From: Escherichia coli | Lineage (GTDB): Bacteria > Pseudomonadota > Gammaproteobacteria > Enterobacterales > Enterobacteriaceae | Assembly: GCF_030384885.1 (NCBI RefSeq) | Contig: NZ_CP128613.1 | Length of the DNA: 64,000 nt | Direction: 5' to 3' (one strand) | Shown: in pieces, positions 40,369 to 40,583 of the stretch | Position numbering within the stretch: the stretch's first letter is position 1 | Layout: every line of letters starts with the position of its first letter | Made by a program: the position numbers and the translations under genes | The notes under the pieces: generated by a model | What the model was told of the DNA's origin: nothing | The model's database searches: none | Seen by the model: only the letters and a program-made list of their open reading frames with translations

Positions 40369-40401
40369 TTTAATCATCCTGGTTAAGCAAATTTGGTGAA
40401 T

Positions 40402-40414
40402 TGTTAACGTTAAC
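40402..40414. promoter_or_regulatory. Palindromic operator-like site (TGTTAACGTTAAC), copy 1, in the cscA-cscK divergent promoter region; candidate CscR operator
   Basis: Palindrome with central CG typical of LacI/GalR-family operators; exact repeat of the site at 40467. Confidence 0.5.
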
Positions 40415-40447
40415 TTTTATAAAAATAAAGCCCCTTATCTTTATAAA

Positions 40448-40463
40448 TGTGATTAATATCACA
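40448..40463. promoter_or_regulatory. CRP (cAMP receptor protein) binding site
   Basis: tgtgattaatatcaca is a perfect match to TGTGA-N6-TCACA. Confidence 0.7.
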
Positions 40464-40466
40464 AAT

Positions 40467-40479
40467 GTTAACGTTAACT
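40467..40479. promoter_or_regulatory. Palindromic operator-like site (TGTTAACGTTAAC), copy 2
   Basis: Identical 13-mer to 40402..40414, 65 bp away, flanking the CRP site. Confidence 0.5.
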
Positions 40480-40583
40480 ATGACGTTTTGTGATCGAATG
40501 TGCATGTTTTAGTAAATCCATGACGATTTTGCGAAAAAGAGGTTTATCACTATGCGTAAGTCAGATGAATTTGAGGGAAAAAA

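Follow-up and report, generated by a model that had tools for sequence, protein, structure and literature searches.

The window, by which we mean the whole 64 kb stretch of Escherichia coli DNA analysed here, carries the csc genes around a short intergenic gap. To the left of this gap lie cscR (37932..38927, plus strand), which encodes a LacI-family repressor of 331 amino acids according to the RefSeq annotation of an identical sequence and its matches to the LacI family, and, with cscR directly downstream of it, cscA (38935..40368, minus strand), annotated under that name and encoding a GH32 sucrose hydrolase (invertase; TIGR01322, 481 bits). To the right lie the fructokinase gene cscK (40584..41498, plus strand; NF006957, 504 bits) and cscB (41570..42817, plus strand; TIGR00882, 590 bits), the gene for a sucrose/H+ symporter of the LacY family. 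An earlier reading of this DNA, made from the letters alone and called here the sequence-only reading, had named cscA, cscK and CscR and given the cscA-cscK gap as the 215 bp from 40369 to 40583. Both points were borne out, the gene calls by agreement between profile matches and the RefSeq annotation of identical sequence, and the gap by the RefSeq starts on identical sequence, 40368 for cscA and 40584 for the kinase gene. A 351-bp part of the region is 100% identical to E. coli 2013C-4282, where RefSeq places the same gene boundaries, and the csc region is present in 2,663 of 5,426 complete E. coli genomes, or about half. For cscR itself, the open reading frame made by program begins with a GTG at 37839 (362 amino acids) and that of RefSeq with an ATG at 37932 (331 amino acids). 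The database cluster representative has 352 amino acids and homologues have 331-338, a range of lengths that favours the start at 37932. The adjoining sequence at 36147-37931 contains an intact dsdA, separated from the adjacent cscR by a short remnant of a pseudogene, and cscB is followed (42818-46000) by torI and by degraded prophage genes, among them an intS pseudogene. These dsdA and prophage flanks fit the recombination hot spot near argW that is described in PMC11251922.

The gap holds two putative CscR operators. In a search of the full 64 kb, the 14-mer TGTTAACGTTAACT was found in two exact copies, one proximal to cscA (O1, 40402-40415) and one proximal to cscK (O2, 40466-40479), 64 bp apart from start to start and with no strand assigned to either. 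At the core of both copies (40403-40414 and 40467-40478) is the 12-mer GTTAACGTTAAC, a perfect palindrome with a CG step at its centre, and a central CG step is typical of LacI-family operators. The sequence-only reading had reported two identical 13-bp palindromes 65 bp apart, at 40402 and 40467. There are indeed two exact copies and the first does begin at 40402, but the second begins at 40466, since 40467 is the start of the palindromic core; the 65-bp spacing has to be corrected to 64 bp, and the 13-mer that had been called a palindrome is not palindromic over its full length but belongs to an exact repeat of 14 bp enclosing a perfect palindrome of 12 bp. Besides O1 and O2, no match to the operator with one mismatch or none was found anywhere in the window, and no CscR site with up to three mismatches, of a kind that would have indicated autoregulation, was found upstream of cscR (approximately 37600-37932). 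The sequence TGTCAACGTCAACT at 45700-45713 differs from the operator 14-mer at two positions and was judged to be a chance match because it is non-palindromic and lies inside an open reading frame (45566-46765, minus strand).

A lone 12-bp palindrome carries no meaning in DNA of this kind, as the window has 16 perfect ones against 15.6 expected, but GTTAACGTTAAC is the only one that occurs in it twice. Exact 14-mers repeated no more than 100 bp apart are present at one further place in the window, and any such repeat was seen in 3 of 200 shuffled windows. The other close exact repeat of 14 bp or more is GGGAATTATCCCCGGCTTTT, found within 100 bp at 953-972 and 1041-1060; each of its copies resembles a terminator-like hairpin (CCGGGGAATTATCCCCGG, then a run of T), and a REP-like sequence, gcctgatgcgctacgcttatcaggcctac, sits between them. 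For O1 and O2 we find what characterises operators of the LacI/GalR type, namely a CG-centred palindrome, a position in a promoter region adjoining the regulator gene, and co-occurrence with orthologues of the regulator.

The last of these points rests on two samples of other genomes. In the first, one genome per species was scanned for exact TTAACGTTAA-N39-69-TTAACGTTAA, so that centre-to-centre distances of 49-79 bp were allowed, and at least 120 loci were returned. When the four Csc proteins were used as tblastn queries, about 43 of the matches listed proved to be csc-linked, with CscA identities of 52-76% and varying gene orders; the genera in these matches are Yersinia, Serratia, Rahnella, Pluralibacter, Tatumella, Rosenbergiella, Enterobacter, Klebsiella, Dryocola, Pectobacterium, Pantoea, Proteus, Gilliamella/Orbaceae and Rodentibacter. 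Spacing at the csc-linked loci among the matches listed is 64 bp in most cases and otherwise 63, 57 (Gilliamella/Orbaceae) or 67 bp (Rodentibacter), and the operator in other genera often takes the fully symmetric form TGTTAACGTTAACA. Because these loci had been chosen by the motif, a second sample was drawn by similarity to the CscR protein only, and comprised six csc-like loci of 13 kb each. The operator pair was present at 63-64 bp in five of the six, upstream of the GH32/permease operon, in loci that include those of Samsonia, Cedecea, Enterobacter cloacae and Zobellella (Aeromonadales); the locus from Providencia has a single operator, and no further site with one mismatch or none was found in the 13 kb of each locus. 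We take the protein-only sample as strong independent support for GTTAACGTTAAC as the likely operator of CscR. The Providencia layout (L131, 8498-8733), with cscA and cscK divergent around one perfect operator, is unlike the two-operator module, and this locus is also without a LacY-type permease and has an EamA-family gene after cscK.

These data bear on whether the palindromes are protein sites at all, since in principle they might have arisen by chance or represent tandem HpaI sites or RNA hairpins. The chance rate of single 12-bp palindromes given above is what such an account can draw on. However, the duplicated identical palindrome is unique in the window, is invariant among alleles and adjoins CscR homologues in more than 15 genera, while a hairpin would have an A/T-rich stem of just 4 bp. 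A search of the region against Rfam returned no credible RNA family, with best E-values of 0.25-0.55 that are far below gathering scores. The comparative data effectively refute a non-protein origin, to which we allow next to no chance.

The shorter motif used in the scan has a wider distribution. In six loci from Bacillus genomes, pairs of TTAACGTTAA occur about 65 bp apart, and in Bacillus sp. OV166 (L036, 3311-3385) the gene directly downstream of the pair is uxaC (glucuronate isomerase), which is followed by a LacI-family gene whose product is only 25% identical to CscR. It seems that an unrelated Bacillus regulator uses the same core motif with a similar two-site spacing. TTAACGTTAA is not exclusive to CscR, so the operator assignment is founded on co-occurrence and not on the motif by itself. 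Many pairs of TTAACGTTAA on different contigs were also found in Chitinophagaceae, Prevotella and Chlorogloeopsis (12 loci), with no csc genes nearby, and these many-copy pairs may be dispersed repeat elements.

The assignment of these operators and of a CRP site is already known, having been in the literature since 2002, and the region is in this respect a rediscovery. The abstract of the 2002 paper by Jahreis et al. reportedly speaks of 'a cscKo operator mutation'. In the accounts of the csc system given in two later papers, Jahreis et al. 2002 are credited with assigning two 12-bp inverted repeats in the cscA-cscK gap as putative operators of CscR (PMC11251922, PMC3938415), one of which is the site of an up-mutation (PMC11251922). 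According to the first of these accounts, Jahreis et al. also recognised a Crp-cAMP site adjacent to the -35 region, and the elements are conserved in five species (PMC11251922). In the second account, CscR is believed to act as a repressor of the two divergent units via operator sites for cscA and for cscKB, mutation of the cscKB operator site leads to growth on low sucrose, and csc expression depends on cAMP-CrpA, a cyaA::Tn5 mutant being unable to use sucrose (PMC3938415). Dependence on cAMP-CRP is reported in the first paper as well (PMC11251922). The sequence-only reading had proposed, without these sources, that two CscR operators bracket a CRP site, and this agrees with the published assignment as well as with the invariance among alleles and the co-occurrence with CscR homologues; the reported operators fall on these same two repeats, and the control of both divergent transcripts by CscR that it had thought possible is reported in the citing papers (PMC11251922, PMC3938415). 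What is added here is a set of corrected coordinates, a second conserved CRP site, the recognition that the perfect CRP1 core of this window belongs to a rare allele, and a four-site module that extends far beyond E. coli.

The predicted cAMP-CRP site between the operators, CRP1, has the core TGTGATTAATATCACA (40448..40463, no strand assigned) within a 22-bp site at 40445-40466, and it abuts O2 in that its last base, 40466, is the first base of the O2 14-mer. The perfect core that had been claimed at this position stands, with 0 mismatches to TGTGA-N6-TCACA, and it is the only zero-mismatch match to this consensus in the 64 kb window. Across genera its offset from O1 is fixed at +44. Within the species the site is less uniform. 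Ten E. coli alleles were aligned together with a relative that has a CscR of 79% identity. O1, O2 and their flanks proved invariant in the ten E. coli alleles, as did the TTGTGATCGAA belonging to the second CRP-like site discussed below and a GTTTATCA block near 40542-40549, and most substitutions among alleles are located in the 50 bp that separate the operators. Of the nine E. coli alleles read besides that of the window, eight have TGCGATGAATATCACA as CRP1, with TGCGA as its one mismatch; in the divergent allele L044 the CRP1 core is also perfect and the spacer is different. The window's allele is rare, as among some 2,660 csc-positive complete genomes no more than 37 reach 99% identity to it over a 116-bp core (40395-40510), and nearly all the remaining ones are 92-94% identical. 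It has seven substitutions in this core, of which one turns the TGCGA of CRP1 into a perfect TGTGA and others weaken the -35-like ATGAAA to ATAAAG. The perfect CRP1 consensus is thus a feature of a minority allele.

The CRP1 spacer (40453-40458) is GTTAAT in most genera (TGTGATGTTAATCACA; loci L007-L133), which resembles the CscR half-site TGTTAA, and in E. coli alleles it is TTAATA or TGAATA instead. Conservation of GTTAAT is unexpected because CRP spacers are normally unconstrained. Between O2 and cscK there is also a direct repeat, ATGACGTTTTG (40480-40490) and ATGACGATTTTG (40520-40531), 40 bp apart, that is kept among E. coli alleles and shows no conservation across genera.

A second CRP-like site, CRP2 (TGTGATCGAATGTGCA, 40489..40504, no strand assigned), had been missed by the sequence-only reading, and the cscK-side operator O2 is thus placed between two predicted CRP sites. 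In the window the left half of CRP2 is perfect and the right half weak, and the site has 3 mismatches in all. An ungapped cross-genus alignment of 29 sequences revealed as conserved blocks ATTG together with O1, AAAG at 40427-40430, CRP1, O2, and the TGTGAT of CRP2 with a weaker ACA. This TGTGAT is fixed at +85 from O1 and nearly invariant across genera in surroundings that are unconserved, and in many genera CRP2 has, at the same offset, only one or two mismatches over both half-sites. The centres of CRP1, O2 and CRP2 in the window are at 40455.5, 40472.5 and 40496.5, their order is conserved across genera, and the start-to-start distances of 20 bp from CRP1 to O2 and 21 bp from O2 to CRP2 are invariant. 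The difference between operator spacings of 63 and 64 bp is confined to the segment between O1 and CRP1, the spacing of CRP1, O2 and CRP2 being constant. At the Gilliamella loci, CRP2 is absent.

The same bases could instead form the -35 region (TTGTGA, 40488-40493) of a cscK promoter with its -10 element near 40510-40517, in which case no CRP site would be present. Four of the six bases of TTGTGA agree with TTGACA, an nnAAAT motif is found 18 bp further on in E. coli, Tatumella and Pluralibacter, and the right half-site is weak in the window, where the site has 3 mismatches in total. The wider comparison points the other way. On the O2 side in Enterobacter, Cedecea, Serratia and Rahnella, a convergent gene has its 3' end 40-94 bp away and a divergent promoter is not to be expected, and yet CRP2 with its TGTGAT is kept; both half-sites together have a single mismatch in many genera; and the base preceding TGTGA is unconserved. 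In addition, the account in PMC3938415 mentions two cAMP-CrpA sites in the csc bidirectional promoter, for which Sabri et al. 2013 are cited. We consider a -35 element at this position quite improbable and treat CRP2 as a predicted CRP site in what follows. Its retention at loci for which a divergent promoter is not expected suggests that the ancestral unit was unidirectional, in the order CRP2-O2-CRP1-promoter/O1 followed by the genes. This ancestral unit looks to have had an operator placed between a tandem pair of CRP sites, all upstream of a single promoter, and the divergent cscKB unit of E. coli appears to use CRP2.

The position of O1 relative to the cscA promoter depends on which -10 element is taken. 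Conservation across genera points to TAACAAT (40400..40406, minus strand), a candidate -10 element that overlaps O1, and to TTTATT (40424..40429, minus strand), a candidate -35 element 17 bp upstream of TAACAA. Among 31 sequences from many genera, the bases of ATTG, the outer flank of O1, are each retained in 28-31 (A in 30, T in 28 and T in 29), which is better than the equivalent flank of O2 and better than the symmetry of the operator requires. Within the TAACAA hexamer the A at position 2 is present in all 31 sequences and the terminal T in 30. For TTTATT, the TT at hexamer positions 1-2 is present in 26 of 31 sequences, there is a conserved AAA(G) block at 40427-40430, and the mean number of matches to TTGACA in the -35 region is 3.16 against a background of 1.68 (31 sequences). 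Conservation thus favours a cscA promoter with its predicted start at about 40393-40394, CRP1 at -61.5 to -62.5, O2 at about -78.5 and CRP2 at about -102.5, in which O1 would cover the -10 element and the spacer. The description of the csc promoter in PMC11251922 locates it between the operators with the start inside O1, which fits TATAAA (40416..40421, minus strand), an E. coli-specific alternative -10 element suggested by the sequence together with that description. This alternative would put CRP1 at about -46.5. A -10 element at a fixed offset between the operators, as in a class II CRP model, is unconserved across genera, and we retain TATAAA solely as an E. coli-specific alternative, so that two models of the cscA promoter remain.

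On the cscK side, the distance from CRP2 to a TTATCA is constant to within 1 bp in E. coli, Tatumella and Pluralibacter, with unconserved sequence intervening, and this suggests TATCAC (40545..40550, plus strand) as a candidate -10 element for cscKB. The predicted start would be at about 40557 and CRP2 at about -60.5. A consensus promoter scan found no sigma-70-like site within the cscA-cscK intergenic region, and this fits promoters that are weak and activator-dependent. In every model, O1 would occlude the cscA core promoter and O2 would overlap neither core promoter.

We judge it about 90% probable that the region serves as the bidirectional control region of the chromosomal csc regulon, built from the CscR operators O1 and O2 and two cAMP-CRP sites. 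CscR dimers supplied by the adjoining cscR would bind O1 and O2, and CRP1 and CRP2 would tie the activity of both promoters to the absence of glucose. O1 probably overlaps the core promoter or the transcription start of cscA, so that CscR bound there would keep RNA polymerase out. The centre of O2 lies 17 bp from that of CRP1 and 24 bp from that of CRP2, and CscR at O2 most likely interferes with CRP-dependent activation; this would bear on cscKB, whose transcription runs away from CRP2, and probably on cscA as well. An inducer, presumably sucrose or a product of sucrose, would release CscR. The identities of the genes, the places of the sites, their conservation and their occurrence together with CscR homologues are established here or in earlier work, which also supplies genetic evidence of an operator mutation and of cAMP dependence. 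The exact transcription starts, the class of CRP activation and the mode of repression at O2 are what we infer, and under the model favoured by conservation the mode of repression at O2 is a conjecture.

Two ways in which O2 could act deserve to be set against each other. The sequence-only reading had raised the possibility of a repressor loop over the CRP site, and a CscR bridge from O1 to O2 would indeed enclose CRP1 in a 64-bp loop, like that between lac O1 and O3, and repress both promoters. The operators are identical and, at 63-64 bp or 6.0-6.1 helical turns, on nearly the same face of the helix, a spacing maintained across many genera; CRP bends DNA and lies inside the would-be loop; and the layout, in which the auxiliary operator comes directly upstream of the CRP site, is like that of lac. 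A difficulty is the protein itself. CscR (331 amino acids) aligns to LacI residues 5-329 and ends there, the LacI profile being matched only up to position 330 of 358, and because the alignment ends where the LacI core ends, CscR is without the C-terminal tetramerisation helix. GalR forms loops although it too is without a LacI-type helix. The spacings of 57 bp (5.4 turns; Gilliamella, Orbaceae) and 67 bp (Rodentibacter) are out of phase, however, and Providencia has one operator. Moreover, since the variation between 63 and 64 bp falls only between O1 and CRP1, the overall spacing is explained by promoter geometry and the adjacency of O2 to the CRP sites with no loop needed. We regard looping as unlikely.

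The other way is that CscR at O2 acts against activation, by excluding CRP from one or both of its sites, by masking CRP dimers as CytR does, or in the manner of GalR at gal OE. The order CRP1-O2-CRP2 with CRP centres 41 bp apart is invariant in Enterobacterales and Zobellella, the arrangement is kept where the O2 side has no divergent gene, and the 22-bp CRP1 site runs up to the first base of the O2 14-mer. Considered against this are the absence of CRP2 from the Gilliamella loci, the nature of the CscR operator, which is a strong and perfectly conserved palindrome and not a pair of weak flexible half-sites like those of CytR, and the co-occupancy by lac CRP and LacI of sites 20.5 bp apart, which means that adjacency is no proof of interference. 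As in CytR systems, a repressor site flanked by two CRP sites is found here, at O2, but in place of a weak CRP-dependent operator there is an invariant palindrome identical to O1, which stands alone. Anti-activation at O2 is a tentative proposal that is compatible with the main explanation and at least as likely as looping. It may also be, although we doubt it, that the CRP2-O2-CRP1-promoter/O1 unit acts as one nucleoprotein complex and not as two separate steric operators, in which a helix-less CscR dimer at O2 cooperates with the CRP dimers on either side, in CytR-like or GalR-like anti-activation, or bridges to O1 across DNA bent by CRP in a 64-bp micro-loop; the spacing of this unit is invariant from E. 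coli to Zobellella.

The present findings leave the understanding of the csc system unchanged. The csc genes are used for engineering sucrose-utilising production strains, in which derepression through mutations in cscR or the operators is a standard step, and a rigid, widely conserved four-site module together with natural alleles of differing CRP1 quality could guide promoter redesign.

The closest comparison is with the csc region of E. coli EC3132/W (Jahreis 2002; Sabri 2013), which is the same locus with the same operators, CRP site(s) and divergent cscA and cscKB, and from which the window differs in carrying a minority allele with a perfect CRP1. The scr regulon shares with csc a sucrose-responsive LacI-family repressor and two inverted-repeat operators around a CRP-dependent promoter; in the description given in PMC11251922, ScrR has two operators flanking the scrY promoter and there is an upstream CRP site. 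With lac the region shares a LacI-family repressor whose main operator is at the core promoter and whose second operator is found some 17-20 bp upstream of the CRP site (at -61.5 in lac), which thus has an operator on either side. It differs in that the LacI tetramer loops 92 bp, whereas the csc operators are 64 bp apart and CRP2 lies beyond O2. In the gal system (OE/OI, CRP at -41.5) the upstream operator likewise adjoins the CRP site directly, and the dimeric repressor again has no LacI-type helix, but the second operator is intragenic, 113 bp away, and the loop needs HU, whereas both csc operators are upstream of coding sequence. The CytR-CRP complexes of deoP2, cdd and tsx also have a LacI-family repressor site between two tandem CRP sites. 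We know of no contact between CscR and CRP, and CytR binds in a CRP-dependent manner to weak and flexible half-sites, whereas the CscR operator is perfect and highly conserved.
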